Source: Deltaproteobacteria bacterium (lineage in GTDB: Bacteria > Bdellovibrionota_F > JAHFAK01). Taken from it: DNA of 64,000 nt. The stretch is taken from NCBI GenBank assembly GCA_023250585.1, contig JAHFAK010000001.1:232-64231 (forward strand). Reading direction: 5' to 3'. The position numbers and the translations under genes were made by a program. Under the pieces are notes generated by a model. The model was given only the letters and a program-made list of their open reading frames with translations. It was not told where the DNA came from and ran no database searches. The stretch's first letter is position 1. The number at the start of each line of letters is the position of its first letter. This document shows, piece after piece, positions 280 to 41,869 of this stretch.

Positions 280-1025
280 TTTTAGTATGTTTATTTTTGT
301 AAGGAAACTCTGTTGAAAGCGTTTTTAAAAATACGAACGATTTGGAAATATCTCTCGTAAATCAATATCTGTACGCTTAACAACCGATGGATGATCAGGA
401 TGTATTGAATTCATCTAGTTTTCAGCAATACTAAGTAAATTCTTACTAGAACCTAGAAGAAGGTTATTTCCTTGTGCAGCCCATGGATAATACACAGGAA
501 TTGTTTTGGTAATAAGAGGTTCTAGTTGTCTTTTTACAAATCTCATTTAATGCCTTCTCTTAAAAAGTCTTGAGCATATCAAGCAATTGATTGAATGTTA
601 GATCCAGTAACAAGAATAGTCTTTTCAGGCTCATTCATAATTAACTCTTCATAATTCAATTCATTAAAGTTTACTGATTGATTCAATACATACGATAATT
701 GGGTCATACCTACTTAAAAGTAAAAAATATAGTATAAGTTGATGATGATCAATGAGAAATAAGTATATACAATGTGAGCGTATCTCAGAGACAAAATTGA
801 AAGAATAGTGAAGTATTTTAGTCAAGATCTTTCTGAGATGCAGATATCAAATTTAAGAGAATTAAGTCGTAATGCAGCCAATAAAATTCTCCGTGTTTTA
901 AGAAAACGTATTGCCTCTCTTTGTGAGCAAGAATCTCCCTTCAAAGGAGAAATCGAGGTTTATGAATCCTTTAAAATCAATATAGTCTAAACGGTTAAAT
1001 TTATATTTCGCATTATATTTTATGG

Positions 1026-3152: not shown

Positions 3153-3187
3153 GCAAGAAAATTGATAAGTCGAAATGTTTTGATTGA

Positions 3188-5104: not shown

Positions 5105-5113
5105 TGGTATAGC

Positions 5114-6859: not shown

Positions 6860-7679
6860 GGACGTAAATCACTTTGTGATGGGATACAACCTCTCCGTGT
6901 CTTATAGATTGTGGCTCATAATAGGGAGCCATCATATCATTAATCTCTGAAGGGAGCGGTGCAAGCTTCCCAAAGAAAATTCTTTTTAAAAACTCTTTAC
7001 CTTTCATAGTTTTGGGAACAAGATGAAATCGTACTGCTGTCTGTTTAATTAACGAAATAAGATATGCTTTGAGTGATCCAGTATCTACGGGGTATGCTGC
7101 CTTACTTTCTGCTTTAAAACCAAACTTTTCAAGGAGATCTACAAGCTCAGTCGCAGAAAAATACTTTTTACTAAAGGGACTAGGATTAAAATCTGGCCAT
7201 TCTTTATTTGCCGAGCAAATGATTAAAGTACCTCCTTTACGAAGTACGCGTTTTGCTTCCATTAAAAATTTTTTCGGCTGTTCAAAGTAATAAATTGCTT
7301 CATAAAGAATAAGCACATCAAAGGTATTGTTTTCAAAAGGTAAGTGATGCGCATCTATGCTAACTACCTGAATACTATCCCTGTCTTTATACTGTTTTTT
7401 TGCAATTTCTACATTGCAAGGATCAATATCTCCTCCAACTACTTTTTTTGCCTGTGTTGCCAGATATCCTAATCCCTGCCCAGTACCACATGCAACTTCA
7501 AGAACATCTTTATTCTGACAAAATCGAGCAGCAAAGCGATACCGGGTGTAAAGCATCGAAAGCTGCTGTTCTGATGCGCCAATACCCGGTGCTTCTGTTA
7601 TCGAGTTATAATTGGCGGATATATTACTTGTTTCCATAGAATGTATGTACCTTTTCACAAACGTACGTAACCTGATCAT
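6843..7679 (-). CDS. class I SAM-dependent methyltransferase
   Basis: Motif I VLEVACGTGQGLGYL, an acidic residue after beta-2 (GGDID), and a Methyltransf_11-like layout. Confidence 0.75.
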   Translation of the reverse strand: MIRLRTFVKRYIHSMETSNISANYNSITEAPGIGASEQQLSMLYTRYRFAARFCQNKDVLEVACGTGQGLGYLATQAKKVVGGDIDPCNVEIAKKQYKDRDSIQVVSIDAHHLPFENNTFDVLILYEAIYYFEQPKKFLMEAKRVLRKGGTLIICSANKEWPDFNPSPFSKKYFSATELVDLLEKFGFKAESKAAYPVDTGSLKAYLISLIKQTAVRFHLVPKTMKGKEFLKRIFFGKLAPLPSEINDMMAPYYEPQSIRHGEVVSHHKVIYVLGYLS

Positions 7680-8739
7680 TGGTCAATTCTGTGGTTAGGG
7701 GCAACATCAATACACGTTCAAACATTCGTTCAGTTCGTGGAAGTTTATAGTGAGTAAGGCCGAGTGTTTTAAATTGATGTACTCCCTTTCCTCCCCACGG
7801 GATCATAATTTCAATTCCATTACTGCGTAAATGTTCAACTAAGCCTAAGCGATTTTCGGCTTCGATTTCATAATTTTGGTACATATCAAAATGATCGCTT
7901 TCTTTCGAAGGATTTGGTGGAAGATGAACCTGTTTCAGACGAGAAAGATTATCATAATAGAGTTGTGCAATTTCTCTACGTCTTGTTACCCATTGAGGAA
8001 ATAATTTCAATTTCATATCTAATACCGCTGCTTGAACATTATCAAGGCGACAGTTATATGCCCATGCACTCACTTCTCCGGGAATCCCTCGACCATGATC
8101 GCGAAGCGAACGGACTTTTTGAGCAATCTCTTCGCTATTGGTTGTTAATGCTCCTGCATCTCCAAACGCACCAAGCGCCTTTGCAGGATAGAAACTAAAA
8201 CACCCAGCTACGCCAAAAGATCCTCCTCGCTTTCCTTTAAATTCTCCACCCAGAGCCTGAGCTGAATCTTCAATCACTATGAGATTATGTTTCTGTGCGA
8301 TTGCAAGAATCGTATCCATTGTACATACCCGTCCATTTAAATGAACAGGAATAATTGCTTTCGTTTTTGGAGTAATTGCTTTTTCAATGAGATCTACATT
8401 CATGGTATGATCATCACTAATATCAATTAAAACCGGCGTAGCACCTACCATATGAATTGCTTCAGCTGTTGCTACAAAAGTGTGAGAAACAGTAATAACT
8501 TCATCTCCTGTTTTAATACCTGCAGCTCGCATCGCTAGGTGGAGCGCATCGGTACAATTACTCAAACCAACTGCATATTTTGTTCCTACATATGCTGCAA
8601 GATTTTTTTCAAAATTTTCAAGTTGATGACGAAGCATGAGATCCCCATTTGAAAGACAGGCTTCGATCTCTTTCATCATTTCTTTACCCCATTTTTTATA
8701 TTGCTGTCGATAATCAACAAAACGTACGTTCCATTCCAT
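7624..8739 (-). CDS. DegT/DnrJ/EryC1/StrS-family PLP-dependent sugar aminotransferase
   Basis: NCTDALHLAM, DEVITVSHTFVATAEA, and the PLP-lysine region FSFYPAKALGAFGDAGA. Size 371 aa, typical of NDP-keto-sugar aminotransferases. Confidence 0.85.
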   Translation of the reverse strand: MEWNVRFVDYRQQYKKWGKEMMKEIEACLSNGDLMLRHQLENFEKNLAAYVGTKYAVGLSNCTDALHLAMRAAGIKTGDEVITVSHTFVATAEAIHMVGATPVLIDISDDHTMNVDLIEKAITPKTKAIIPVHLNGRVCTMDTILAIAQKHNLIVIEDSAQALGGEFKGKRGGSFGVAGCFSFYPAKALGAFGDAGALTTNSEEIAQKVRSLRDHGRGIPGEVSAWAYNCRLDNVQAAVLDMKLKLFPQWVTRRREIAQLYYDNLSRLKQVHLPPNPSKESDHFDMYQNYEIEAENRLGLVEHLRSNGIEIMIPWGGKGVHQFKTLGLTHYKLPRTERMFERVLMLPLTTELTNDQVTYVCEKVHTFYGNK

Positions 8740-8742
8740 GTT

Positions 8743-9717
8743 TTATCCCTCCTTATATTTCTTAACGTCTGCACCACTATTGATCATTGGTTTCTTATGA
8801 CCAATAATTTGTTTAATATCTTTTAACATTTTCTCTACAGTTAATCCTTGAATTTTACGCAAATAATCTTGATCTCCAACTATAGTAGTATAAACAGAAG
8901 GAAGTGCAAAACGTTTAAAATGAACTTTAGGAAGATTTGATTCTGCAAGCACTTCAGCAACAGCTCCACCGAGCCCTCCAATGATGCTATGCTCTTCAAT
9001 AGCAAAAATTGCTTCTGTTTCACGAGCTGCGCTTAGGATTGCTTCAGTATCAAGGGGCTTTAAGGTATGCATACTTAAGACTCGTGCATTGATATTATCA
9101 CGAAGAAGTCGTTCTCGAAGTTCGGCTACCAGTTTTAATATCCCTCCAGTCGAAATTAAGGTAATATCCGTTCCTTTGAAAAGCTCTAATGCTTTCCCTA
9201 ATGTAAATTCAATTTTTCCGTTATGAACGACAGGCTCTCCAGCTCTTCCCAATCGAAGATAGCAGGGCCCAGTTCTTTCGACGACGGCACGGGTAGCGTA
9301 TTCGGCTTCGATAGGATCGCCAGGAGCAACGACTGTCATCTCGGGAAGCGAACGCATAATTGCTAAATCCTCAATTGCATGATGAGTCATACCTAAGGAT
9401 CCATAGGCATACCCTCCCCCAACCGAGACAATTTTGACATTGGCTTTATGGTAACAAACATCATTTCGAATTTGCTCAAGGCACCGTATTGTTGGAAAAT
9501 TTCCAATTGAATAGGTAAAAACTGTTTTACCTGAAAGTGCGATTCCTGCTGCTATGCCTGTCATGTTCTGTTCAGCGACTCCTGGATTAAGGTACCTCTT
9601 AGAATATTTTTTAGCAAAAGGTTCAACGACTCCAAAACCAAGATCTCCAACGAGAAGATACACTTGTTCATTTTCTTCCGCTATTTTCATTAAGGCATCA
9701 AAAAAAGCGTTTCTCAT
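8743..9717 (-). CDS. transketolase, C-terminal (pyrimidine-binding) subunit
   Basis: GIAEQNMTGIAAGIALSGK and HHAIEDLAIMRSLP motifs of the transketolase Pyr and C-terminal domains. ATGA-type 4-nt overlap with the N-terminal subunit gene. Confidence 0.8.
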   Translation of the reverse strand: MRNAFFDALMKIAEENEQVYLLVGDLGFGVVEPFAKKYSKRYLNPGVAEQNMTGIAAGIALSGKTVFTYSIGNFPTIRCLEQIRNDVCYHKANVKIVSVGGGYAYGSLGMTHHAIEDLAIMRSLPEMTVVAPGDPIEAEYATRAVVERTGPCYLRLGRAGEPVVHNGKIEFTLGKALELFKGTDITLISTGGILKLVAELRERLLRDNINARVLSMHTLKPLDTEAILSAARETEAIFAIEEHSIIGGLGGAVAEVLAESNLPKVHFKRFALPSVYTTIVGDQDYLRKIQGLTVEKMLKDIKQIIGHKKPMINSGADVKKYKEG

Positions 9718-10562
9718 AGAGTATTTTCCAATTCTTTAAGTGCATTCGTAAACTCATCTCCTTGAGGAGAACGGTAATGCCACAAAAGTAAATTTTCCAT
9801 GAAACTTACCCCTTTACCTTTAATCGTATGAGCGATAATACAACTTGGTTTACCCAAGGTAAATGGAAGAGTATCAAAAGCTTCTTTAATTTCTTTAAAA
9901 TCATGCCCATTGATCTCGTGAACTCCCCATCCAAATGCTTTCCACTTGTCGGCAAAAGGATCAAGATTGAGAACTTCTTTAACGGTTCCTAAACTCTGAA
10001 TCTTGTTGTAATCAACGATTGCAATCAAATTATCGAGTTTATGATGGGGAGCAAAGAGCGCTGCTTCCCAAATTGATCCTTCATCACATTCTCCATCAGA
10101 AAGCATCGTAAAAATTCGATATGATTTATTATCGTGTTTCGCTGCTAAAGCCATGCCAGAAGCTATACTTAATCCATGACCAAGAGCACCCGTTGAGACC
10201 TCAACACCAGGAATACCAGAATGAGTAACATGCCCAGGTAGATGTGATCCATTTAAATAAAAATCATCGAGCCATTTTTTTGGAAAAAAGCCACGTTCAG
10301 CTAGAATTGCGTAGAGCCCTGCACATCCATGTCCCTTACTTAAAATAAAACGATCTCGATCGGGCCATTCGGGTTTATGAGGATCCACTCGAAGCGTATC
10401 AGTATAGAGGACTGCAAGAAGATCTGCCATTGAAAATGAGCTTCCAACATGAGCACTCTTTGCTCGTCCGATCATTTTCAAAACATCAATACGAATTTTT
10501 TTTGCTCTATGCTTATATTTTTCTTCTTCAGCATGTGAAAAAGTTATTCTTCTTTTGGACAT
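9714..10562 (-). CDS. transketolase, N-terminal (thiamine-diphosphate-binding) subunit
   Basis: GHGCAGLYAILAERGF, GALGHGLSIASGMA, and the TPP/Mg site SDGECDEGSIWEA. Confidence 0.8.
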   Translation of the reverse strand: MSKRRITFSHAEEEKYKHRAKKIRIDVLKMIGRAKSAHVGSSFSMADLLAVLYTDTLRVDPHKPEWPDRDRFILSKGHGCAGLYAILAERGFFPKKWLDDFYLNGSHLPGHVTHSGIPGVEVSTGALGHGLSIASGMALAAKHDNKSYRIFTMLSDGECDEGSIWEAALFAPHHKLDNLIAIVDYNKIQSLGTVKEVLNLDPFADKWKAFGWGVHEINGHDFKEIKEAFDTLPFTLGKPSCIIAHTIKGKGVSFMENLLLWHYRSPQGDEFTNALKELENTL

Positions 10563-11164
10563 GACGTTAGCCTACTATCGACAAGTATTCGAAAGGTACG
10601 ATAGATAACTTTAAAATAGTTGCTGATCGAGGGATTGTTCACATACACAAGGCCAAGATGAATTTTTTCTGGCCGAATTAATCGTTTATATGCCTCATGA
10701 GGATCTGCTGCTCCCTTTAGAATTTCGCCTTCATTATGAAATTTAATTGATGCATAGTCGGTAATACCTGGCCTAATTGCTAGAAGTTTTCTTTCTTCTT
10801 CATTATAAAGATCCACCTCTTGTTGAACCTCTGGCCTTGGACCAACAATACTCATATCACCTTTTAACACATTCAATAATTGCGCAAGTTCATCAAGTTT
10901 GTAATTCCGAATAAAATGACCTATTTTCGTAATGCGAGGATCATCATCTGATGTCGATGGCCCACCAATTTTATCAGCATTTATAACCATTGTACGAAAT
11001 TTAAAAATCTTAAATTTCTTTCCATTTTTGCCAACTCTAATACCTCTATAAAATGCAGGGCCTTCTGAAGTGAGTTTAATTCCAATAACAAGAGCTAACA
11101 ATAGTGGAAAACTAATAATAAGACCTGTTAAAGCAAAGATAATATCGAACAAACGTTTTATCAT
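10544..11164 (-). CDS. small bacterial sugar transferase (PglC/WbaP C-domain type undecaprenyl-phosphate sugar-1-phosphate transferase), initiating enzyme
   Basis: Single N-terminal TM (LFDIIFALTGLIISFPLLLALVIGI), then KIFKFRTM and MSIVGPRPE motifs of the Bac_transf family. 206 aa. Confidence 0.85.
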   Translation of the reverse strand: MIKRLFDIIFALTGLIISFPLLLALVIGIKLTSEGPAFYRGIRVGKNGKKFKIFKFRTMVINADKIGGPSTSDDDPRITKIGHFIRNYKLDELAQLLNVLKGDMSIVGPRPEVQQEVDLYNEEERKLLAIRPGITDYASIKFHNEGEILKGAADPHEAYKRLIRPEKIHLGLVYVNNPSISNYFKVIYRTFRILVDSRLTSCPKEE

Positions 11165-11319
11165 GGCCGTGATTTATATTACACTTAAGAAGAATGTGTA
11201 AAGAAAAAAGTATTTGGGGTCTATAATCTCAAAATTCTCGTTAAAAAACAATATATCAATAGTAAACGATCATAATTTATATTCTTGCAAAATCATAGCG
11301 AGTTACCTACTATTTCCTA
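11165..11319. promoter_or_regulatory. divergent AT-rich intergenic region between the minus-strand locus and the only internal plus-strand gene; likely carries promoter(s)
   Basis: 155-nt non-coding gap flanked by divergent start codons. No specific -35/-10 assignment attempted. Confidence 0.3.
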
Positions 11320-12615
11320 ATGTTTACTCGTTTTCTAACTCGTTTAAATTCATCTGTCATGCTCCTTACTTCAACAATATTCGTTATCACCCTTTGTATT
11401 TCATGGAAACATCTACCTATTACAATAGATAATTATGTACCAAACCAAGATCGAAAGTATTACGAAAAAATAGCTCTTGGAAAATATTCTGAAGTTATTA
11501 AACCATTTTCAAAACGCGTTTTGCATCCGATTGTAGCTCGCAGTATAAGCTCTCTTTCCTCGTTGTCACTGAACCAATCATTTTTTATTATTTCTATTAT
11601 TTCGCTGATCATATTTATTTCATTTATTCTATGGATAATTAAAAACGAATCGTCGTTTCCTTTAGCAATGACTATACCCCTCTTAGTCACACCGTATATG
11701 AGTCTTCTCTTTTATGATTATTATATGCACGATCTCTTTTTTTCTACCGTGCTTATTGCCTTTTTTGTTTTTTTTATCAAAAAACTTTGGCCGCTTATGT
11801 TCTTAAGTCTCTATGCACTCTTTCTCATTCGAGAGGCGACAATACTCTTAAGCTTAATACTTATTATTTCATGCATCATAAAAAAAGAACCCCGGATCCT
11901 TTTGGGTGTTATTATAGCCACGGGATTAGGTCTTGTTAGTTCTTCATATTTTGCTGGATTAGGACAAGAGAATCGACATGCCTTAGGAGAACTTATTTTC
12001 ATGATCTCAAAAATTATTCACAACACCTTTTCAAATTTTTTTGGTATTAATTTGTGGGTAAATACTTATAAAGATTGTCATCCTATTTTAGAAATTAACA
12101 TTGTCAGACATCCTGATTGGCTTTCATTTGGTAAAATCACTAATTTTGGCGTATGTGATTTTAATCTTCTCCAACCTCTTCATACTTTGATACGATATCT
12201 TTCGTCATTTGGCCTAATTCCTCTTCTTTTCTTTTATATTATTAAACGCGAAGGGAAAAAGATTATAGAACACAATGATCTATGGTTTATTTCCTGTTTA
12301 CTTTTTGGCTTAGTGAGCTTTGTGATCGGCCCATGCTTAGGGCCAGGAGGATATCGTCTGATGGGTTATGGATGGCCACTATTTTGGATAGTATGTCCTA
12401 TTCTCATGTCGCTTTTTATTCAAAGCGAACCAGCAACGCGAAATAAAATTGTTATAATCCATGTAGTGTTAACATGGATTCTTTCGATAATGGAAATACT
12501 TCTTCCAAAATCAGAATTATTATACCCTCTTACCTTCTCTTTTATTCTTATTCTTTATGTACTTGCGTTTAGTCAGCTAAAAAAGATGAGCTTTATTTTG
12601 AGTAATAACGAATAG
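11320..12615 (+). CDS. polytopic integral membrane protein of unknown function (at least 10 predicted TM helices)
   Basis: 431-aa ORF dominated by hydrophobic helices. It is the only plus-strand gene inside the locus and is convergent with the downstream epimerase gene. No catalytic motif recognised. Confidence 0.5.
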   Translation: MFTRFLTRLNSSVMLLTSTIFVITLCISWKHLPITIDNYVPNQDRKYYEKIALGKYSEVIKPFSKRVLHPIVARSISSLSSLSLNQSFFIISIISLIIFISFILWIIKNESSFPLAMTIPLLVTPYMSLLFYDYYMHDLFFSTVLIAFFVFFIKKLWPLMFLSLYALFLIREATILLSLILIISCIIKKEPRILLGVIIATGLGLVSSSYFAGLGQENRHALGELIFMISKIIHNTFSNFFGINLWVNTYKDCHPILEINIVRHPDWLSFGKITNFGVCDFNLLQPLHTLIRYLSSFGLIPLLFFYIIKREGKKIIEHNDLWFISCLLFGLVSFVIGPCLGPGGYRLMGYGWPLFWIVCPILMSLFIQSEPATRNKIVIIHVVLTWILSIMEILLPKSELLYPLTFSFILILYVLAFSQLKKMSFILSNNE

Positions 12616-13570
12616 CTCGATCAATACCTGCTTGAAAATCAATCGTATATTTGAATCCCATTTTATGTTGTTTTGCAGTATCACCTCCGCGTGCAAAAAC
12701 ACCTTCGGGCTTATCTGACATACCTATCACATCAGGTGAATAACCACAGAACTGTGCTGCTACTCGCGCAAAATCTTTAAAGCTTGTATAGACTCCAGTT
12801 GAGAGATTAAGAGCTTCGCCATTGTCTATTCGGTCCATGGTTTTCAAAATACCATCAACACAATCTTCAATATGAATAAAATCTCTCATTTGGTCGCCAG
12901 TACCCCAAACACGGAGAAGCTTCTCCCCTTTGTGTGCCATAGCTCTTTTACAAATACTTGGAAATGGATATGTATCATTTTGATCTTCTCCATAACCGGA
13001 AAAAGGTCGATAGGTAACTGACTTCAATCCATGTTTTTCATATGCAAGTCGTGCGCAATATTCATGAGTTAGTTTTGCCCAACCATATGACATATCAGGC
13101 ATACCGAGATCTTCAGTAAAATCAATCATATCTTCTTTTAATAATACATAATTATCGTGCTTTTGATATTTAATGGGATATGCAGCTGAAGAACTAAAAC
13201 AGATTGTTTTTTTCGGCTGCGTTTTGACTGCCCATTGCCAATATTCAGAATCGATTGATAAATCATCGGCAACAGCGAGCGGGTTATTTTCAATCATAAG
13301 CCGTCCACCAACCATAGCAGCTAAATGAAAACAATAATCAAAGTCATTATCTAAAATCTTTTTAAAATACGACCGACAATCTTCATAGTGAAATTCAAAA
13401 TTTTTATAATCACGTGGATCAAATAACGGCCATCCTTTTTTTGGATCAATTCCCCCTGTGTAAGGAGCGACATTATCAATGCAAATTACTTTATCTCCAA
13501 AATCAAGAAACCGTCTCACCACATGTCTACCAACAAAACCTGCTCCGCCGGTAACTAATATTTTACGCAT
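12593..13570 (-). CDS. NAD(P)-dependent nucleotide-sugar epimerase/dehydratase/reductase (extended SDR)
   Basis: Start refined to the internal Met (MRKILVTGGAGFVGRHVV), which gives an 8-nt overlap with the upstream gene. Catalytic YGWAKL (YxxxK) is present. Confidence 0.8.
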   Translation of the reverse strand: MRKILVTGGAGFVGRHVVRRFLDFGDKVICIDNVAPYTGGIDPKKGWPLFDPRDYKNFEFHYEDCRSYFKKILDNDFDYCFHLAAMVGGRLMIENNPLAVADDLSIDSEYWQWAVKTQPKKTICFSSSAAYPIKYQKHDNYVLLKEDMIDFTEDLGMPDMSYGWAKLTHEYCARLAYEKHGLKSVTYRPFSGYGEDQNDTYPFPSICKRAMAHKGEKLLRVWGTGDQMRDFIHIEDCVDGILKTMDRIDNGEALNLSTGVYTSFKDFARVAAQFCGYSPDVIGMSDKPEGVFARGGDTAKQHKMGFKYTIDFQAGIDRAIRYYSK

Positions 13571-14486
13571 TTCTAAAATGTCTCCTATAGAGTTCAAAAG
13601 CTGTGATTGATATTTCAGGAAGATACTTCTCAATACTTTCCGGATCTTTTTTCAAATCCTCTACAAGCTTTAAATTATTTTCGTATCCTAAATATTCTTT
13701 TTTCATATCAACAACTAGATCATGTTCATTACGTTCCTGATATACTGTTGGCGCTCCGTAAATAACCTTTGCTCCTTTTGCTTGAACATAATATGCCGCC
13801 CAAATATCATCCATACGGCCAATATGAGGAAACAAAAAGTAATCCTTGAGGAGGCTACTCCGTATAAAAGTATTCTGCGAATTAAAAGGTGAAAGCTGAT
13901 TACTTGTAAACGGAAATGGTTTTTTATCAAACTGACATTCTGGTCGATGTTCCATACGACAAATAGCATCGATATCGGGATCACCATTCCAGAAATCTGC
14001 TTGAACATCAGGTGTAATCGTTGTTGTCTCAACGTGTGAGTAATCTCTTCGAGGGATTAATTGCAAAGGATATCCTCTATGCCATAAATGGTTTTCATTG
14101 GTTACTCCAATAGGATCAAATGCAGGAAGGTCTGTTTTGTAATACGAAACTTTTAATGTCTTACCTACACTAACATTACTACCCCATGTGTCATAGGGAA
14201 TATTATCATCATCAATAACTGCAACGATATCAGCACCCATATCATGAGCCCACAGAAGACCAAAATTTCTGCGTTGTATACAATTCCACCCAATAGCATC
14301 TGATAACTTTTTATCATACTTTTCTTGCATCTCACACGATACGTATAACCCTCGATCGAGTTTATAGTTTGCAGGAGTTTTTTTATCACCAATTACCACA
14401 AGATCCCAATCCGTGAACGATTGAAATTTATGTAAAGCCTTAGTGATGGGATTAATCGTTGTTGTAACAATGACTTTCTTAGACAT
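13563..14486 (-). CDS. RGP / UDP-L-arabinopyranose mutase-like protein (GT75 family homologue)
   Basis: Blocks collinear with plant reversibly-glycosylated polypeptides: VIDDDNIP (RGP TIDDDCF), HRGYPLQLIPRR (RGP VRGYPFSLREG), GRMDDIWAAYYVQ (RGP GRYDDMWAGWCVK), DMKKEY (RGP NLKKEY). Confidence 0.6.
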   Translation of the reverse strand: MSKKVIVTTTINPITKALHKFQSFTDWDLVVIGDKKTPANYKLDRGLYVSCEMQEKYDKKLSDAIGWNCIQRRNFGLLWAHDMGADIVAVIDDDNIPYDTWGSNVSVGKTLKVSYYKTDLPAFDPIGVTNENHLWHRGYPLQLIPRRDYSHVETTTITPDVQADFWNGDPDIDAICRMEHRPECQFDKKPFPFTSNQLSPFNSQNTFIRSSLLKDYFLFPHIGRMDDIWAAYYVQAKGAKVIYGAPTVYQERNEHDLVVDMKKEYLGYENNLKLVEDLKKDPESIEKYLPEISITAFELYRRHFRNA

Positions 14487-14502
14487 GTATCACCTCATGA
14501 AT

Positions 14503-15261
14503 TTATAATGATTGTTTTAAAAATCGAGCTTTTGGCGAAAAACGAACCTTCAATCCAATTTTAAAATAGAGAAAATTTCTGAAGAAAGTATTCTGAGATT
14601 CTCCCTCAACTCTCGCCTTCCATACTGATGGAATTTCGATTACGGGAATATTCAAACGTAACGGTTTTATAAGCGTTTCAAATAAAAATGGATGGCGTAG
14701 CTCTTCCCAATGAATATTCTGAACCACGCTTGTTGGAAACAGACGATAACCATACGTCATATCAGAAAGTTTTGTTTTGTATATTAACGAAAAGAATTTT
14801 TGAAAAACAAAATTGAAAAACCATTTAAGCGAATTATAGCCTTCAAATGTTCCTCCCTTAAGCCAACGGGAAGCGGTAATAATTGAATGAGGATTACTCT
14901 TTGCATGATTAATAAAGTGAACTACATCTTCAGGGTTAGTTTCCAAATCACTAGCCATCATAATAACATGGCTTCCTTGAGATAGATCAAAGGCCTCTCG
15001 AATAGCACCACCTAAAAAAGGAAGTTTTTGATGATGAATTATATAACGTCTGGGATCACAAACTACATAAGATCTACAAATTTCAAGACTCTCTTTCGTT
15101 GTCTTTTGACAAACAATCATGACATATTCCTTCACTGCTACCGATGAACTCTCTTCTATAATTTCTATAGTTTTTTTTAAAGACAAAGTTTCATTAATAA
15201 CAGGAAGCAATACAGTTACTGATTCAAATTTTGTTGCTATCTTCATAGTATCTTCTCGCAT
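14503..15261 (-). CDS. GT2-family glycosyltransferase (polyprenyl-phosphate sugar synthase-like, DPM1/ArnC type)
   Basis: N-terminal VTVLLPVINETLSLKKTIEIIEE glycos_transf_2 signature. 252 aa, soluble. Start may be the Met 5 codons in (MKIATKF). Confidence 0.7.
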   Translation of the reverse strand: MREDTMKIATKFESVTVLLPVINETLSLKKTIEIIEESSSVAVKEYVMIVCQKTTKESLEICRSYVVCDPRRYIIHHQKLPFLGGAIREAFDLSQGSHVIMMASDLETNPEDVVHFINHAKSNPHSIITASRWLKGGTFEGYNSLKWFFNFVFQKFFSLIYKTKLSDMTYGYRLFPTSVVQNIHWEELRHPFLFETLIKPLRLNIPVIEIPSVWKARVEGESQNTFFRNFLYFKIGLKVRFSPKARFLKQSL

Positions 15262-15315
15262 ACTAAGGTGTATTCATCCAATCTCATGATATTTGTCAAT
15301 AATTTAATATATATA

Positions 15316-16302
15316 TTATGCTTCATTATGAATTTCTTGGGTTATAGTAGACGTTGAAACTTCTGATGACAATGCATGCCTCAGAAAAAACATTCCAGTT
15401 ATTCCTTTTAAAAGAAAATTTATCATTTGAGCTGACAGACTTATAAGAATAACCATTTCACTCGCAGATACTTGTCCACTTGAAATAACTTCCCCACTGA
15501 TCTTATCAGCAAAAAAGGTAACAGTAACAAGTTGAACAACTCCTAATCCTCCTGGTGTTAATGGAATAGTTCCCAACAACATAATAATCGGAAGATAGGT
15601 AAGAACTGTTATAAAAGAAATATGCACGCTAAAAGTCCACGCAAAAAAGAAGAATGATGTATTAATAATCATATGAAGTGGGAATCGAATAGAAAGAGTA
15701 TATCCATAATCAGAAAAGTTTCGATCACGAAATGCTGAAAAGATATGAAATCGAGATGTCCAATTAAATAGTCTATTTTTCATGAGAGGTTTTCCCAAGA
15801 AAGCTAAAAGAATAATTCCGATTGTCGTAATAACCCAAAGTATTCGCAGAGACTGAAGAAAATTAAATTTCTCACTACTCAAATCAGAAAAACAAGAGCC
15901 AAAGAATGCGAGACTCACAATCCAATATAAATCTATCAATACAATGAATGAAACGAGGCTCGTACTTTTTAAAAACGGAAGATTTTTTTCTCGTTTGAAA
16001 AACCACGCGAGTGCACCCTGTCCGGCTGCATAGTTCACAAGCATTACAAGGTATGAAGCTAAACGAGGAACAAAAAGCTCACGCGCTGAAGTAATACTCC
16101 CAACTCGAGAAAAGAAACGTGACAGTGCCCAGCAATCAAGCCACCATACTATTACAAAATACATTATTGAAAAGCCAAGAAAATATGGTAACTGAACATA
16201 GGAAAGTGCAACCCCTAAATTAGTAATAGGATATTTCTTAAATAAATAATAAAATATAATAAGAGCAATACCCCAAGGTAATAATCTTTTTAATAAGCCC
16301 AT
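15316..16302 (-). CDS. integral membrane protein, flippase-like / lysylphosphatidylglycerol-synthase-TM-like family (partner of the GT2 above)
   Basis: 328 aa with about 8 TM helices. Positioned immediately upstream of a DPM1-like GT2, as in lipid-linked sugar modification pairs. Confidence 0.4.
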   Translation of the reverse strand: MGLLKRLLPWGIALIIFYYLFKKYPITNLGVALSYVQLPYFLGFSIMYFVIVWWLDCWALSRFFSRVGSITSARELFVPRLASYLVMLVNYAAGQGALAWFFKREKNLPFLKSTSLVSFIVLIDLYWIVSLAFFGSCFSDLSSEKFNFLQSLRILWVITTIGIILLAFLGKPLMKNRLFNWTSRFHIFSAFRDRNFSDYGYTLSIRFPLHMIINTSFFFFAWTFSVHISFITVLTYLPIIMLLGTIPLTPGGLGVVQLVTVTFFADKISGEVISSGQVSASEMVILISLSAQMINFLLKGITGMFFLRHALSSEVSTSTITQEIHNEA

Positions 16303-16317
16303 ATATTTCCTCTCATT

Positions 16318-17205
16318 TTAGAGACTGCGATTTTTATCTTCCCCTTTCAAAAGAGAAAGTAAATATTCACCATACCCGCTTAAGGATTGGGTTGAGGCAA
16401 GTCGTTCGAGTTGTGTATCATCTATCCAACCTTCACGGAAAGCTATTTCTTCTATACAAGCAATTTTTAGTCCTTGTCTTTTCTCAATAGTGGCAATGAA
16501 ATTGCCTGCGTCAAGTAACGAATTGTACGTTCCTGTATCAAGCCATGCAATACCACGACCAAGTTTTTCTACATGAAGTTCACCTAATTTTAAATAGACA
16601 TTATTCACATCAGTGATTTCCAATTCACCTCTTTGCGATGGTTTAAGATCAGCTGCAATTTTCGTAACTTTATTATCATAGAAATATAATCCCGTGATTG
16701 CATAATTCGATTTCGCTTTTTTCGGTTTTTCTTCAATGCTTATTACGGCTCCCTTACTATCAAATTCAACTACACCGTATCGTTCAGGATCCTTTACCCA
16801 ATACCCAAATACTGTTCCTCCAGACTTTTGATTGACTGCACGACGAAGAGATTCAGTAAGACCATGACCAAAAAATATATTATCTCCTAATGCTAAAGTA
16901 CATGAGTCTTCTTTTAAAAAGTTTTTTCCAATAAGAAAACTCTGAGCTATTCCTTCTGGTCTTTCTTGAATAGCATAAGAAAAGTTAACACCCCATTGTG
17001 AACCATCATTTAAAAAATTGTGAAAGAGTGTTTGAGAATCCGGCGTTGTAATAATCAATATATCCTGAATTCCTGCAAGCATGAGCGTTGAAATTGGATA
17101 ATAAATCATGGGCTTATCATAAATAGGTAATAACTGTTTACTTATGCTTCGAGTAATCGGATAAAGCCGAGATCCTGACCCTCCAGCAAGAATAATTCCT
17201 TTCAT
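16318..17205 (-). CDS. rfbA: glucose-1-phosphate thymidylyltransferase
   Basis: [46 protein letters not shown] is nearly canonical RmlA. Confidence 0.95.
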
Positions 17206-18068
17206 GTACGATACCTCTTTTCTTGTAAATAATCAGTCAGCGCTTCTTGCCAAGAACGAATAGATCCAATCTGGGCAGTGAGTTTAGCATTATCTAATAC
17301 ACTATAGCGTGGTCGTATTGCTTTATGAGGATACGTAGTACTTGTAACAACGCTAAGATTTGCATCACTTTTAATGTGTGAAATTATTTCTTGTGCAAAA
17401 TTAAACCAGGTTGCATGCCCTGTATTTACAGCATTATACATTCCAGGCTGTATTTTATTTTCCAAAATTATCCATATCCATTGTGCCAAATCTTTGGTAG
17501 ATGTAGGCGACATGGTTATATCATTAACGACCTCTATTGGTTTTTTCTCTTTTGTTTTATTAATTATGCTTGCAACAAAATTTCCGCCTTTGCCACGAGA
17601 GCCGGCAATACCAAAAAGAGAAGCTGTTCGTAAAATAATATTCTCCGAATATTCAAGTGCAAACACTTCTCCCAATGCTTTTGAAGTTCCATATACGCTC
17701 AAAGGTATAGGTAAATCAGCCTCTATATATGGTGTAGATTTGTTACCCGAAAACACATAGTCGGAACTAATATGTATAAAAATATGTTTTTGTTTTTCAC
17801 AAACTCGAGCAAATTCACGAACTGCGTATGCATTTACAAGGTAGGCTTCATGAACATTACTTTCCGCATCATCAACTCGATTATATGCAGCACAATTGAT
17901 AAGCACATCGAAGGATTGTTCAATAAGCAAAGGATAAATTCTCGCTGTATCGGATAAATCGAGTTGAGAACGATTGATAGAAACTATATCGATTTTGTTA
18001 TGGAGAGGTTTTGTTCTCATAAGATCACTTCCGAGTTGTCCACGAGAACCAATAATTAATATTTTCAA
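17202..18068 (-). CDS. rfbD: dTDP-4-dehydrorhamnose reductase
   Basis: [16 protein letters not shown] start, YGTSKALGE catalytic region. 288 aa. Context between rfbB and rfbA. Confidence 0.85.
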
Positions 18069-19078
18069 CGGTAATTACCTCTCATTCTTTGACCGTACTG
18101 TCGGTTATAATACTCCTCGAAACTTTTTCCCGTCTTAATTGGATGCCACCAATCACGCCTTTCCGTATACCATGAAATCGTATCTTTAAGGGCACCCTGA
18201 AATGATGTTTCTGGCTTCCATCCAAGCTTTTGTATTTTCTTACAATTGAGTGCATACCGTTTATCATGGCCTGGACGATCCTCTATATAGTGTAAAAGTT
18301 CTTTTGGCTTTCCCATAATCGTTAAGATCTCTTCAAATAATGTTTTGTTTTCTATCGAACAGGTTCCTCCAATATTATAAATTTCTCCAGGAACACCTTT
18401 TTCAAGGAGTAAATTTATTGCCCGCACATGATCGACGACATAGAGCCAATCACGAACATTGGTTCCTGTCCCATACAACGGAAATGGTTTATCTTCTAAA
18501 GCATTGGTAATCAAAAGCGGTAAAGCTTTTTCAGGAAATTGATACGGACCAAAGTTATTTGAACATCTAGTGGTAATTACAGGAAGGTTATAAGTTACAA
18601 AATACGAACGAGCAAAAAGATCGGAAGATGCTTTGGAAGCAGAGTATGGACTATTTGGTTCGAGGCTATCTGTCTCAACTGACTCTCCTTCTTCAACTGA
18701 ACCATATACTTCATCAGTACTGATATGAATAAAAAGTTTTATTTTGTTCGAAAGTGCCGTTTTAAGTAAGGTATATGTTCCTGTTACATTTGTTTTTAAA
18801 AATGCTTCTGGATCGAGTACTGATCTATCAACATGTGTCTCTGCGGCAAAGTGCACAACATAGTCGCAGTCTTTCATTGCAGTACTCACAACGTGAAAAT
18901 CAACAATATCTCCCTTAATCCAAGTATAATAGGGACTTGTTTCGATATCTTTGAGATTTTCAGGATTTCCTGAATAGGTTTGTTTATCTAAATTTACTAC
19001 TGCAATATTTTTTTGTATGAGTGAACGAACGAAATGTGAACCAATAAACCCAAGTCCTCCAGTAACTAATACTTTCAT
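18065..19078 (-). CDS. rfbB: dTDP-glucose 4,6-dehydratase
   Basis: MKVLVTGGLGFIGSHFVR, HFAAETHVDRS, YSASKASSD (YxxxK), ISTDEVYG are canonical RmlB. Confidence 0.95.
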   Translation of the reverse strand: MKVLVTGGLGFIGSHFVRSLIQKNIAVVNLDKQTYSGNPENLKDIETSPYYTWIKGDIVDFHVVSTAMKDCDYVVHFAAETHVDRSVLDPEAFLKTNVTGTYTLLKTALSNKIKLFIHISTDEVYGSVEEGESVETDSLEPNSPYSASKASSDLFARSYFVTYNLPVITTRCSNNFGPYQFPEKALPLLITNALEDKPFPLYGTGTNVRDWLYVVDHVRAINLLLEKGVPGEIYNIGGTCSIENKTLFEEILTIMGKPKELLHYIEDRPGHDKRYALNCKKIQKLGWKPETSFQGALKDTISWYTERRDWWHPIKTGKSFEEYYNRQYGQRMRGNYR

Positions 19079-19638
19079 TACAGTAACTCCCGTGCAGCAA
19101 CAAGGTTAGGCCACCCGAGATCTTTTTCTGAAAGAATTGCTTCTTTTTCTGAAACAGGCCATATTATTCCTAATGACGAATCATTCCATAAAATTCCCTT
19201 GTCATGTTCTTTTGAATAATAGTTTGTTACTTTATAAACAACTTCCGTATTTGATTCAAGGGTACAAAATCCGTGTGCAAACCCAATTGGAACAAGTAAC
19301 TGATGCCATTCTGTAGGACTTAATTCTACAGCGACATGTTTACCAAAAGAAGGAGATGCTTTTCTTATATCAAGCACAACATCGAGTATACGTCCTCGAG
19401 TAACTCGCACAAGTTTAGCTATTTCATAAGGAGGCGTCTGAAAATGCAATCCGCGAATCGTCCCTCGTGCTTCGCTCAAAGAATGATTATCTTGAACAAA
19501 TTTTTCAGTAATTCCCGCCTTATGAAATGCCTTTTCATTATATGTTTCAGAAAAAAACCCTCGTGAATCATTAATTTTACGGGTAATAATTAATTTGATT
19601 TCTGGAATTTCGAGTGGAATTACGTCTATCTTATTCAT
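19078..19638 (-). CDS. rfbC: dTDP-4-dehydrorhamnose 3,5-epimerase
   Basis: 186-aa cupin with RGLHFQ and FSETYN motifs of RmlC. Confidence 0.9.
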   Translation of the reverse strand: MNKIDVIPLEIPEIKLIITRKINDSRGFFSETYNEKAFHKAGITEKFVQDNHSLSEARGTIRGLHFQTPPYEIAKLVRVTRGRILDVVLDIRKASPSFGKHVAVELSPTEWHQLLVPIGFAHGFCTLESNTEVVYKVTNYYSKEHDKGILWNDSSLGIIWPVSEKEAILSEKDLGWPNLVAARELL

Positions 19639-21098
19639 TCAAAAACTCTCTTCGTTAAGTCTAGCCAATCCTTATATGCACGCTTTCTACTAAATCCATT
19701 GCGAGTTATCCCGCGTAGCATAGTCACAATAAAAACATAACATAAAGAACCACAAATAAATGCAGGAACATAATGCATAGAAGATTTAATACTCATCATA
19801 ACAACACTCATACAAACACCCGCGCCAAGACCTCTCATTACATTTTTAAGAGCACGATTGATCGAGAAAGGGATAATGTGTGAAGAAAGATAAAGCCCCA
19901 CTCCAAAAAATAAACAGTAACTTATGAGACACGAAACGGCTATCCCAATAACCCCAAAAAAAGGAATGAAGATAACAGTCAAAATTATGTTGAGGATCAT
20001 CGTGATACCTAAGAGTATTGTATGTATAACCTGACGATTACATGCATCAAGAAGACGCCCAATTGGCTGACTTAAAAATAATGGGACAAGAGCAATAGCA
20101 AGTAGCTTCAGTGTAGAGATCGATTCATTATATTCATTACTGAACACTAGGTGAATAATTTCCTCTGAAAAAATTGAAATGACGAGTGAAAAATATACAC
20201 ATATAATGAGTATCAATTCAAAAAATAAATCAAATGTTCTCTCTAACTTTTCTTGAGCAGTATTATAAAATGAACTAAACAGTGGAAAGATTACAGCTTC
20301 TAAAGCACCTGGAATAAAACGAAGAACGCCTACAATACAAGAAGCTGCTCCAAATAATCCCACGATTCTATCACTAGTAAAATATTTCAGTATAAACGTA
20401 TCTGCATAGATCAATTGCCCAAAAAATACCGCAATCATAAAAGGAATCGCTATCTTGGTTAAGGAAAAAATAAGATTCTTTTGAAAAATAAATCTAGGAA
20501 AGATAGCAAGCTCTCGATACAACGTATGGAATGAATACATGAAATGATACAGTTGGTTTAGTAATAGTGCTAAAACTAAAATATAGAGTGATGGATACAG
20601 TAACAATGAAAGCCCTCCAATAACAAGGGTAATCATTTGGCCAATAATATGGGCTCGAGCCTCGAATTTCATTTTTTGATACACTCGTAGACAGCCATAA
20701 AAAGTATCCGCAAAAGATTCAAACGTTATTGTTGCCATAAGCATTATTAACCAATGTTTTGTCGCTACAGGATAGCCCAATATCGTAACAAGTACTAGCC
20801 CCGAGACAAACATTATTACGGTAAAAAGTATTTTTACCGTAATAATGTTTGAAAGATATATCTCTAATTTTTCAGGTGATTTTGAACCTTCACGAATTAA
20901 GGTACTGGAAAGCCCAAAATCATGAAGCGCCGTGATTATTACTGCAAATGAAATGAGCCAAAAATAAAATCCCGTAGTCCAAATATCAGCATATCGAATA
21001 ACCAGGATAAAATAAATAAAGGTAATTACTTTTCTTCCAAAATAAGCTCCCATCATGTTTGTTACGTTGCGGATAAGTTGTCCTGCTGAAACAGTCAT
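19635..21098 (-). CDS. Wzx-type polysaccharide/O-antigen flippase (MOP superfamily, PST family)
   Basis: 487 aa, about 12-14 TM helices. N-terminal region typical of Polysacc_synt proteins. Confidence 0.6.
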   Translation of the reverse strand: MTVSAGQLIRNVTNMMGAYFGRKVITFIYFILVIRYADIWTTGFYFWLISFAVIITALHDFGLSSTLIREGSKSPEKLEIYLSNIITVKILFTVIMFVSGLVLVTILGYPVATKHWLIMLMATITFESFADTFYGCLRVYQKMKFEARAHIIGQMITLVIGGLSLLLYPSLYILVLALLLNQLYHFMYSFHTLYRELAIFPRFIFQKNLIFSLTKIAIPFMIAVFFGQLIYADTFILKYFTSDRIVGLFGAASCIVGVLRFIPGALEAVIFPLFSSFYNTAQEKLERTFDLFFELILIICVYFSLVISIFSEEIIHLVFSNEYNESISTLKLLAIALVPLFLSQPIGRLLDACNRQVIHTILLGITMILNIILTVIFIPFFGVIGIAVSCLISYCLFFGVGLYLSSHIIPFSINRALKNVMRGLGAGVCMSVVMMSIKSSMHYVPAFICGSLCYVFIVTMLRGITRNGFSRKRAYKDWLDLTKRVFE

Positions 21099-24505: not shown

Positions 24506-24540
24506 ATACTATTATTGTATATACTCTTAAAAAATTCTTA

Positions 24541-29147: not shown

Positions 29148-29149
29148 AA

Positions 29150-30274: not shown

Positions 30275-30288
30275 ATTTTCTCATGATG

Positions 30289-32036: not shown

Positions 32037-32062
32037 ATTAATTCCTTTCGTAAAGAGCATTA

Positions 32063-41863: not shown

Positions 41864-41869
41864 ATAATA

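Follow-up and report, generated by a model that had tools for sequence, protein, structure and literature searches.

The window, meaning the whole stretch of 64,000 nucleotides analysed, contains on its minus strand an ORF (13563..14486) with an ATG start and 307 codons of protein, assigned by homology and AF2 fold to GT75-like GT-A proteins (MtdL/RGP/STELLO superfamily). Directly downstream, on the same strand, lies a gene (12593..13570) for an extended SDR of 325 aa resembling NDP-sugar 4-epimerases, with GxxGxxG, SSSAAY and YGWAK motifs and a match to the Pfam Epimerase family (4.5e-31). A preliminary description of this DNA had already recognised this neighbour as an epimerase, and its assignment to the extended, epimerase-type SDRs was borne out. 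The SDR gene begins before the mutase-like gene ends, its ATG overlapping the stop region by 8 nt, and it has a ribosome-binding site of its own (AGGAGA). On the other side, the minus-strand gene 14503..15261 encodes a GT2 protein of 252 aa (PF00535, 5e-12), of the polyprenyl-phosphate sugar synthase type (DPMS/AglJ/ArnC-like), and is separated from the mutase-like gene by 16 nt, in which a GAGGTG ribosome-binding site is found. Its best NCBIfam matches, all below cutoff, were AglJ, PgfS, Dol-P-hexose transferase and ArnC, and its sole relative in the PDB was the Pyrococcus Dol-P-Man synthase 5MLZ (E 2e-7). Judging from these sequence matches, this GT2 is probably a polyprenyl-phosphate sugar synthase.

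The next minus-strand gene upstream (15316..16302) encodes a 328-aa protein with a PF03706 domain (LPG_synthase_TM, MprF-type transmembrane domain; 9.7e-14), which could serve as a flippase or as a membrane protein working with the GT2. The PF03706 family is also found just upstream of the GT2 gene in other phyla (e.g. L056:6194-7210, E 4e-36), and no GtrA-, MATE- or EmrE-type gene was present in the cassette. The fifth gene (11320..12615) is on the plus strand, convergent with the SDR gene, the 3′ end of which it overlaps by 23 nt. It encodes a polytopic protein of 431 aa with about 11 TM helices. As a jackhmmer search against all neighbour ORFs returned no relatives of this protein, its nature was read from the structure, a model based on a 5-sequence alignment (pLDDT 70), which identified it as a glycosyltransferase with a GT-C fold. 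It has an invariant D44 in the first loop, and D133, H137 and D138 are invariant as well. The junctions between the cassette genes display translational coupling, and a promoter/terminator scan gave no signal above chance.

The SDR scored below every NCBIfam cutoff. When the profile of its orthologs was compared with the PDB, the closest entries were the UDP-GlcA 4-epimerase 6ZL6 (2e-25), TmGalE and MoeE5, with GME and GFS at about 1e-18. We rejected an assignment of substrate on this basis, the scores being far below the cutoffs and the UDP- and GDP-sugar enzymes being only seven orders of E-value apart. The SDR was not called a GDP-mannose 3,5-epimerase or a fucose synthase either, because the position of the Cys acid/base appears, in a by-eye reading, to be occupied by Ala (SSSAAYP).

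Four blocks are collinear in the 307-aa protein: I91-D92-D93-D94, R137-G-Y-P-L, G223-R-M-D-D-I-W-A and K262-K-E-Y. They had been pointed out previously (as IDDD, RGYP-L, GR-DD-WA and KKEY) as a likeness to plant reversibly glycosylated polypeptides (RGPs)/UDP-L-arabinopyranose mutases (UAMs), and they fall on the catalytic motifs of MtdL, a GT75 mutase of solved structure. The 307-aa protein alone matched MtdL with an E-value of 1.5e-17 (phmmer) and the family profile did so with an E-value of 4.4e-44; in a profile-profile comparison (hhalign), MtdL and the mutase-like family aligned over 279 columns with an E-value of 1.4e-47 and 100% probability. The closest structure to the AF2 model (pLDDT 87.9) was, by a wide margin, MtdL (Foldseek, TM 0.79), followed by rice UAM2 (E 2.2e-9, TM 0.59), whereas true GT2 transferases gave a TM of about 0.4. 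The tie to plant RGP/UAM proteins is by structure only: rice UAM2 (8CID) was out of reach of the family profile in the search against the PDB, even at E≤10. The proposed likeness to RGP/UAM proteins therefore holds as GT75 homology, through MtdL and through structure, but not as similarity to the plant proteins detectable by sequence.

Scanning the ORF against Pfam and NCBIfam yielded nothing useful. The preliminary description had taken the lack of a PF03214 match as a refutation, and no match to this family was found for the 307-aa protein at E≤1, nor for any of 64 diverse relatives at E≤0.1; for contrast, PF03214 was present in 119 of the 120 proteins listed for the MtdL clade. However, this test is too strict, because homology was demonstrated via MtdL and via structure, and it would be wrong to dismiss the ORF on PF03214 alone, because these scans are uninformative even though the GT75 homology is real. 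The 307-aa protein, on its sequence and model, is thus securely placed as a genuine bacterial relative, though a distant one, of the metal-dependent GT75 ring-contracting enzymes of plants and actinomycetes, and the mutase-like family is best explained as a sister family to CAZy GT75.

Residue conservation was assessed in 99 sequences, including 98 representatives at 50% identity, and in a second set of 80 close homologs. The key residues of the 307-aa protein are T9, I11, D34, K36, R72/R73, D92-D93-D94, R137-G138, D171, Q204, R224, D227, Q250, R252 and H255. R137, G138 and D171 were invariant (99/99), and D92-94, Q204, R224, D227, R252, D34 and T9 were each kept in at least 95 of the 99 sequences, with at least 96 for the DXD motif D92-D93-D94 (MtdL D109-D111), 98 for D34 and, for the equivalents of MtdL D260, R257 and Q229, 98 (D227), 98 (R224) and 95 (Q204). 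All these residues were invariant in the 80 close homologs. D171 and D227 correspond to the catalytic aspartates D195 and D260 of MtdL, and R224 and Q204 to its phosphate-binding R257 and Q229. R137-G138-Y-P140 is the counterpart of the R-G-F/Y-P motif containing the nucleophilic R159 of MtdL. Both features named beforehand as decisive for an enzyme of this kind, a DXD motif (D92-94) and a nucleophilic Arg (R137), are therefore present, the former near-invariant and the latter invariant.

The mechanism and residue roles of GT75 mutases are those established for MtdL, which, like Hyg20, is a Mn2+-dependent GDP-L-galactose/GDP-L-fucose pyranose-furanose mutase of actinomycete antibiotic pathways (PDB 7XPR, 7YUA; PMC9937993). 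In MtdL, His287 is the second Mn2+ ligand, a residue conserved in the active AtRGP1-3 and lost in the inactive AtRGP5, Asp87 is essential, and T13 and S86 are the base-selective positions (PMC9937993). The family described here has the same GT-A-derived fold, the DDD motif, the Arg of R-G-[FY]-P and the equivalents of Asp195/Asp260, Gln229, Arg257, Arg289 and His292. It nevertheless differs from MtdL in several respects. Identity is only about 23-27%, PF03214 recognition is lost, and the 307-aa protein is shorter by about 70 residues, so it has less of the C-terminal helical region through which MtdL makes its tetramer contacts. The position of the GT75 His metal ligand is occupied by Gln250 in the 307-aa protein and all 80 close homologs (of the 99 sequences of the family, 82 have Gln, 10 have His and five have Ser), Asp87 is replaced by Ile70 and Asn42 by Lys. 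The loci are also of another kind, MtdL belonging to secondary-metabolite clusters and the mutase-like genes to cell-surface polysaccharide loci with GT2, SDR and GT-C genes. At the base-selective positions T13 and S86, the family has Thr and Cys/Ser/Thr, residues of the GDP type, and the plant-type Pro/Asp are not present. The cues to the nucleotide conflict, as Thr9 and Cys69 look GDP-like, whereas the nearest solved relatives of the SDR are UDP-sugar 4-epimerases. From its sequence and model, the 307-aa protein is predicted to be a metal-dependent NDP-sugar pyranose-furanose mutase.

Gene neighbourhoods were counted around the 80 best species-representative matches, the denominators being the loci with enough flank. 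These loci come from at least 10 phyla, across which the mutase-like family is 64-75% identical. The carriers amount to roughly 146 species, and the culturable Dethiosulfatarculus sandiegensis and Occallatibacter savannae are among the cassette's hosts. A GT2 gene was located directly upstream of the mutase-like gene in 56 of 73 loci and an SDR ortholog (63-74% identical) directly downstream in 53 of 77. Where both flanks were present (70 loci), 38 loci had both partners, 15 only the GT2, nine only the SDR and eight neither. The SDR was missing from about a quarter of the loci and a recognisable adjacent GT2 from about a fifth, with divergent GT2s found in some of the loci scored as having none. 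The three genes are neighbours, co-directional and often overlapping, and the four-gene block, with its GT-C homolog, recurs on an independent contig. The conserved GT2/mutase-like/SDR/GT-C cassette had been missed in the preliminary description. Our literature searches found no description of it, which is no proof of absence, as many subscription papers were outside their reach. Domain fusions offered no more than marginal functional clues: the protein P0269 may be a mutase-SDR read-through, and P0174 has a weak GT2 match.

In our preferred reading, to which we would give an even chance, the 307-aa protein is a soluble GT-A-fold, divalent-cation-dependent NDP-sugar pyranose-furanose mutase acting in a five-gene “three-component-plus” cassette, in which the epimerase, the mutase, the formation of a lipid-phosphate furanose and periplasmic transfer would follow one another. 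No transmembrane segment was apparent in the protein on inspection of its sequence and AF2 model. The co-translated SDR would 4-epimerise a common NDP-sugar to a galacto-configured NDP-pyranose, the ring of which would be contracted by the GT75-like enzyme to yield an NDP-furanose, with C1 attacked by Arg137, Asp227 and Asp171 acting as bases, and the metal-diphosphate held by DDD92-94 and Gln250. The DPMS-like GT2 would then move the furanose onto undecaprenyl phosphate, and this trapping would pull an unfavourable equilibrium forward. The PF03706 membrane protein may assist the flipping of the lipid-linked sugar, and the GT-C enzyme would attach the furanose, on the periplasmic side, to the surface polysaccharide made by the Wzx/Wzy route.

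An alternative that we consider unlikely dispenses with the mutase. The 307-aa protein would be an ordinary GT-A transferase or a STELLO-like or arginine-self-glycosylating protein, with a lipid-linked intermediate or a protein partner as the acceptor, and the GT2 and SDR would supply a lipid-linked pyranose. The GT-A fold with its DXD motif is consistent with this proposal, as are the replacements of the GT75 His metal ligand by Gln and of D87 by Ile. STELLO was described as having functional DXD motifs in a region related to GT75, and its function was reported to require the DXD motif, the conserved Arg being dispensable (PMC4906169). PF03385 (STELLO) was matched by 11 of 64 distant relatives, as against none for PF03214, the best E-values being 2.7e-12 for a single-domain relative and 1.7e-23 for a multidomain protein of 1162 aa. 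However, these matches span only model positions 1-109 and cover only the C-terminal third of the domain, and the 307-aa protein itself had no PF03385 match in the Pfam scan. STELLO/DUF288 proteins of the plant Golgi, unlike this protein, are membrane-anchored, lumenal and much longer. Furthermore, the family-wide invariance or near-invariance of the Arg-Gly nucleophile, Asp171, Asp227, Arg224 and Gln204 would be difficult to account for in a generic transferase, and the TM value for MtdL, almost double that for true GT2 transferases, points to a mutase.

The preliminary description had proposed that enzymes of this locus convert UDP-Glc via UDP-GlcA, UDP-Xyl and UDP-L-Arap to UDP-L-Araf. The 307-aa protein would then be a cytosolic UDP-L-arabinopyranose mutase that provides UDP-L-Araf for Leloir glycosyltransferases and is fed by a UDP-sugar 6-dehydrogenase (UGD), a UDP-xylose synthase (UXS) and a UDP-Xyl 4-epimerase from the same locus; we judge this improbable. 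GT75, to which the 307-aa protein is homologous, includes the plant UAMs (GT75, PF03214; rice UAM2, PDB 8CID), which belong to the same superfamily by structure and share the catalytic motif blocks. The adjacent 4-epimerase-like SDR could be a UDP-Xyl 4-epimerase, and the window does contain an NDP-sugar dehydrogenase gene and several SDR genes. Arabinose and xylose are also mentioned in a comparative analysis of Leptospira LPS (PMC4628369), and the presence of these sugars in leptospiral LPS had been raised in favour of this pathway; there was no Leptospira genome among the 80 best species-representative matches. The enzymes required fared poorly, however. The candidate UGD (50769..52001) passed no model other than the generic one for NDP-sugar dehydrogenases, and it scored higher with the UDP-ManNAc dehydrogenase model than with that for UGD. 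The candidate UXS genes (49801..50772 and 41870..42823) reached 72 and 44 bits, respectively, against a cutoff of 294 for the only model available with UDP-xylose synthase activity, that of the bifunctional UDP-4-keto-pentose/UDP-xylose synthase. There was no sign of a UDP-Xyl supply. The distance between these candidate genes and the mutase-like ORF is 28-37 kb, and neither UGD nor UXS was conserved near the mutase-like gene in the 80 other genomes. The 307-aa protein gave no match to plant RGP/UAM proteins as a single sequence or as a profile, its base-selective positions resemble those of the GDP-using MtdL rather than those of the UDP-using plant RGPs, and the genes conserved beside its own encode a lipid-phosphate sugar synthase and a GT-C enzyme rather than Leloir glycosyltransferases. 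From the earlier account, the ORF, its motif blocks, the adjacent epimerase and a GT75 homolog with a DXD motif and Arg are retained, but not the sequence similarity to plant proteins, the UGD and UXS identities or the UDP-L-Araf scheme. The sharing of a pathway with plants, presented there as notable, is a dated point, as the bacterial GT75 mutases MtdL and Hyg20 have already been characterised (PMC9937993).

It is very improbable that the mutase-like enzyme and/or the SDR act on a polyprenyl-P-pyranose made first by the GT2, as DprE1/DprE2 act on decaprenyl-P-ribose, although the gene order (GT2, mutase-like gene, SDR), the precedents of lipid-level epimerisation in DPA synthesis and of an auxiliary SDR setting Ribf versus Xylf in one three-component system (PMC11127046), and the possible fit of a monophosphate substrate to the loss of the His metal ligand would agree with this order of events. 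The ribose- and base-binding residues of MtdL (T9, I11, D34 and R73) and both diphosphate-binding arginines are conserved, which argues for a nucleotide-sugar substrate, and no membrane segment or amphipathic anchor is evident in the AF2 model.

Mammals lack furanose sugars, which in microbial envelopes are often immunodominant or essential. The known bacterial routes to them are the flavoenzyme UGM family, producing NDP-furanoses for Leloir glycosyltransferases, and the synthesis of lipid-linked pentofuranoses derived from PRPP. To our knowledge, bacterial GT75 mutases have been characterised only in two actinomycete antibiotic pathways. UGM (Glf) and its relatives (UNGM, Fcf2) catalyse the type of reaction predicted here, the conversion of NDP-pyranose to NDP-furanose for surface glycans, but they are FAD-dependent and have no similarity in sequence or fold to the mutase-like family. 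In its combination of a lipid-phosphate sugar synthase, a transporter candidate and a GT-C enzyme, the cassette resembles the GtrA/B/Gtr*, ArnC/E/F/T, PpgS/Rv3779 and GT136 systems, and it shares with three-component systems an auxiliary SDR epimerase and a position inside a Wzx/Wzy polysaccharide locus. None of the three-component systems described has a GT75-like mutase. The PRPP-dependent pentofuranose systems with GT136 and an auxiliary SDR epimerase provide a precedent for such logic (PMC11127046), but they start from PRPP and use a UbiA-type synthase and a MATE flippase, whereas the cassette has a GT2 synthase and a PF03706 flippase candidate.

We tentatively suggest, with somewhat less confidence than for the function of the protein itself, that the GT2/GT75-like/SDR cassette, with PF03706 and GT-C proteins, may constitute a previously unrecognised, phylogenetically very widespread route to lipid-linked furanose donors, in which an FAD-independent mutase would produce an NDP-furanose that is trapped at once on undecaprenyl phosphate and used for the periplasmic furanosylation of surface glycans. 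Such a route would parallel the PRPP-fed decaprenyl-P-arabinose and GT136 systems, but with nucleotide sugars as its starting material. It would introduce a new logic of donor synthesis into bacterial glycobiology, provide a bioinformatic marker for furanose-decorated glycans in uncultured phyla, with Prochlorococcus, Acidobacteriota, Planctomycetota and Verrucomicrobiota among the groups concerned, and a first enzymatic function for the bacterial side of the GT75/STELLO superfamily, and offer mechanistic studies a GT75 metal site in which Gln naturally replaces His, along with possible clues to the biochemistry of the plant STELLO proteins. Several thousand unannotated proteins keep the GT75 catalytic machinery and are tied genetically to a lipid-phosphate sugar synthase and a GT-C enzyme. 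The query was matched by 6,186 clusters at 90% identity, a figure in which remoter relatives of the GT75 or STELLO type may be counted, and 209 of the matching clusters at 50% identity scored E≤1e-30.

The open reading frame (ORF) proposed in the preliminary description was recovered at 13563..14486 on the minus strand, with an ATG start and a product of 307 aa, and the four motifs attributed to it were all present and collinear (IDDD, residues 91-94; RGYPL, 137-141; GRMDDIWA, 223-230; KKEY, 262-265). The PF03214 (RGP) model, put forward there as a check, did not match the protein even at E≤1, and an NCBIfam scan gave no match. A single-sequence search against solved structures identified MtdL (labelled “Transglycosylse”; E 1.5e-17), an actinomycete GDP-L-Gal/Fuc pyranose-furanose mutase that was the first GT75 NDP-pyranose mutase to have its structure characterised (PMC9937993). 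A profile built from 64 diverse relatives matched MtdL over nearly its full length (E 4.4e-44), and profile-profile comparison with 28 bacterial PF03214-carrying proteins gave 100% probability (E 1.4e-47, 279 columns, 27% identity); the plant GT75 mutase UAM2 of rice lay out of reach of the family profile by sequence, even at E≤10. In a structure search, the AlphaFold model (pLDDT 87.9, pTM 0.89) had MtdL as its top match (TM 0.79, E about 1e-19), followed by rice UAM2 (E 2.2e-9), with generic GT-A enzymes ranking lower (TM about 0.4). The sequence and profile matches to MtdL, together with the fold matches, therefore identify the resemblance to GT75 as genuine homology, the detection of which needs either the bacterial GT75 clade or structural comparison.

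Searches with this protein retrieved 6,186 clusters at 90% identity, and an exhaustive search of 50%-identity representatives yielded 2,436 matches at E≤1e-3, of which 209 reached E≤1e-30. Family members were annotated as “hypothetical protein” wherever they were named, most sources giving no name at all, and the relatives among the matches listed carried no Pfam domains. The top matches (64-75% identical) came from Verrucomicrobiota, Planctomycetota, Omnitrophota, Lentisphaerota, Bacteroidota, Acidobacteriota, Alpha-, Gamma- and Deltaproteobacteria, Margulisiibacteriota, Chlorobi-like bacteria, Actinomycetota and Prochlorococcus. None of the 64 diverse members matched PF03214, and 11 matched PF03385 (STELLO, formerly DUF288), solely at model positions 1-109, corresponding to the C-terminal third of the domain. 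STELLO proteins have been described with a GT75-related region (PMC4906169), and these matches thus place the family within the GT75/STELLO superfamily, yet outside both curated models. Three members are longer: P0269 (428 aa) runs on into an SDR N-terminus, perhaps as a mutase-SDR fusion or by read-through of the overlapping genes, P0174 (615 aa) weakly matches GT2 on the C-terminal side of its mutase-like domain, and P0263 is a multidomain protein of 1162 aa with a PF03385 match at residues 792-898 (E 1.7e-23).

The residue roles reported for MtdL (PMC9937993) were mapped through alignments of the window protein to MtdL and to PF03214 proteins. The DXD motif (D109-111 in MtdL) corresponds to D92-94, the nucleophilic, autoglycosylated Arg (R159) to R137, the β-phosphate-binding Arg (R257) to R224 and the general base (D260) to D227; D195, Q229, R289 and H292 correspond to D171, Q204, R252 and H255, and the ribose/base contacts T13, I15, D40 and R90 to T9, I11, D34 and R73. 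R137, G138 and D171 were invariant among 99 sequences (the window protein and 98 representatives at 50% identity), and the remaining mapped catalytic and binding residues were kept in at least 95, with all mapped residues unchanged in 80 of 80 close homologs. A non-mutase GT-A or STELLO-like transferase appears unlikely, principally because this mutase-specific Arg/Asp constellation is almost absolutely conserved. Other positions differ from MtdL: Gln250 replaces the Mn2+ ligand H287 (of the 99 sequences, 82 have Gln, 10 His and five Ser), Ile70 replaces the sugar-contacting D87 (Ile or Val in 79/99) and Lys36 replaces N42. The base-selectivity positions, T13 and S86 in MtdL and Pro and Asp in UDP-using plant RGPs (PMC9937993), are occupied by Thr9 and Cys69 (the latter Cys, Thr or Ser family-wide), apparently a GDP-type pattern.

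Genomic context was surveyed in the best 80 species-representative genome matches. A GT2 gene (about 250 aa), the mutase-like gene and an SDR gene (about 325 aa) followed one another in this fixed order, co-directional, adjacent and often overlapping. An SDR ortholog (63-74% identical) lay directly downstream in 53 of the 77 loci with enough flank, and a GT2 (46-68% identical) directly upstream in 56 of 73; the 70 loci with both flanks comprised 38 with both partners, 15 with the GT2 only, nine with the SDR only and eight with neither, some loci scored as lacking the GT2 containing divergent GT2s. This block was very frequently flanked by a PF03706 protein (MprF-type TM domain; about 330 aa) and by at least one large protein of 8-12 TM helices, the gene for which frequently converged on that of the SDR; several of the latter were PF13231 PMT_2 proteins, i.e. 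GT-C enzymes. In the window, the cassette consists of the PF03706 gene (15316..16302), the GT2 (14503..15261), the mutase-like gene, the SDR (12593..13570) and, convergent with the SDR, a gene for a 431-aa, 11-TM protein (11320..12615). It adjoins rmlA, rmlD, rmlB and rmlC, all above their model cutoffs.

The sole solved relative of the GT2 was the Pyrococcus dolichol-phosphate mannose synthase. The SDR has a Ser/Tyr/Lys signature (SSSAAY, YGWAK) and reached no NCBIfam cutoff; its ortholog profile was closest to NDP-sugar 4-epimerases (B. cereus UDP-GlcA 4-epimerase, 2e-25, then TmGalE and MoeE5), and matched GDP-mannose 3,5-epimerase and GDP-fucose synthase at about 1e-18. The junctions have the features of translational coupling: the SDR ATG and the mutase stop region overlap by 8 nt, the SDR having an AGGAGA site of its own, and the mutase ATG lies 16 nt past the GT2 stop, preceded by a GAGGTG site. 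A promoter/terminator scan found nothing above chance. Identity across phyla, whose genomes probably differ widely in base composition (G+C content of the window, about 35%), is 64-75% for both the mutase-like protein and the neighbouring SDR but only about 55% for the GT2, and no relationship among the GT-C partners is recognisable. Such unusually strong constraint on two soluble proteins suggests that they may form a complex.

The UDP-L-Araf pathway first envisaged for this locus is quite improbable. The presumed UDP-sugar 6-dehydrogenase (50769..52001) passed only a generic NDP-sugar dehydrogenase model, scoring 178 bits for UDP-ManNAc dehydrogenase against 138 bits or less for UGD models, and the two “decarboxylase-type” SDRs scored 72 and 44 bits (cutoff 294) on the sole model with UDP-xylose-synthase activity that was searched, a bifunctional UDP-4-keto-pentose/UDP-xylose synthase. 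Their distance from the ORF is 28-37 kb, and they had no conserved association with the mutase-like gene elsewhere. Leptospira, to which the host had been likened, was absent from the best 80 genome matches, and pathway sharing with plants is not new in itself, because the bacterial GT75 mutases MtdL and Hyg20 were already known (PMC9937993).

We instead propose, with moderate confidence, that the cassette makes and transfers a lipid-linked furanose. Homology, fold, the conservation of residues and cassette, and the GT-C and DPMS-like character of the partner proteins are established here, and the steps that follow are inferred from them. The SDR would 4-epimerise a housekeeping NDP-sugar to a galacto-configured NDP-pyranose, a configuration that is, to our knowledge, common to the known mutase substrates. 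The GT75-like enzyme would then contract the ring, with Arg137 as nucleophile and Asp227/Asp171 as bases, and the GT2 would trap the thermodynamically disfavoured furanose on undecaprenyl phosphate. After flipping, which the PF03706 protein would assist, the GT-C enzyme would transfer the furanose in the periplasm to a Wzx/Wzy-made polysaccharide; Wzx, Wzy-like and initiating-transferase genes are present in the locus. Action of the mutase-like protein on a lipid-linked sugar is very improbable, chiefly in view of its conserved nucleotide-binding residues. Thr9 and Cys69 point to GDP as the nucleotide, and the nearest relatives of the SDR point weakly to UDP. Speculatively, the hydrophobic Ile70, where MtdL has an Asp that binds O4/O6, would suit a 6-deoxyhexose or pentose. 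The self-contained design, including a dedicated epimerase, fits a cassette that works after transfer between very different hosts.

The cassette resembles three-component extracytoplasmic glycosylation systems. Conceptually, it comes closest to a recently described pentofuranose system comprising a PRPP-dependent lipid-phosphoribose synthase, a MATE flippase, a GT136 GT-C enzyme and, optionally, an SDR epimerase, in the description of which no mutase, GT2 or GT75 is mentioned (PMC11127046). No GT75-like gene in a three-component system was found in the literature searched, the coverage of which was incomplete. We regard the window protein as a GT75-type enzyme that represents a new sister family, differs in its metal site and has been recruited into a cassette for lipid-linked donors. 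The evidence for this module, which is widespread, highly conserved and undescribed, is solid, and the module yields a concrete, testable prediction.

A second set of the same logic, lacking a mutase, occupies 39577..42823 (minus strand): an SDR (41870..42823), a GT2 extended at its N-terminus by about 120 aa (40820..41863; best matches, AglJ/PpgS polyprenyl-phosphate sugar synthases) and a PMT_2 GT-C protein (39577..40899). With the cassette, it implies that the locus may add two different lipid-linked sugars extracytoplasmically. Two sulfate-activation genes, encoding a PUA_2 + ATP-sulfurylase + APS-kinase fusion and an unusual pyruvate-kinase-barrel + PUA_2 + ATP-sulfurylase fusion, and a sulfatase-family membrane enzyme (together 5114..6859, 60531..62723 and 45205..47136, minus strand) hint at a sulfated (or phospho-modified) polysaccharide. 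Unusual sugar-tailoring genes (22901..32180, 8743..10562 and 52999..54279, minus strand) encode two B12-binding radical-SAM enzymes (22901..24505, 26827..28395), a Rieske + PhyH oxygenase (25461..26849), 3-dehydroquinate-synthase-like (29150..30274) and GAPDH-like (30987..32180) proteins, a split transketolase (8743..9717 and 9714..10562) and a sugar C-methyltransferase (52999..54279), suggesting a branched-chain or otherwise exotic monosaccharide. The window contains two Wzx-type flippase genes (19635..21098 and 47164..48516, minus strand), a single Wzy_C-like gene (42878..44266) and a single gene for a Bac_transf initiating transferase (10544..11164), and may hold two polysaccharide gene clusters back to back. 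Much of its gene content recurs, in a different order, on an independent 47-kb contig of JGI metagenome 3300045950 (1..20927): the C-methyltransferase, Wzx, sulfatase, pyruvate-kinase-like gene, Wzy, GT2/mutase/SDR/GT-C block, DUF4215, GT4, GAPDH-like gene, HAD and B12 radical-SAM enzyme. The DUF4215-containing protein (565-633 aa) is encoded at 33968..35665 (minus strand) in the window and at 13198..15099 in the metagenomic locus.
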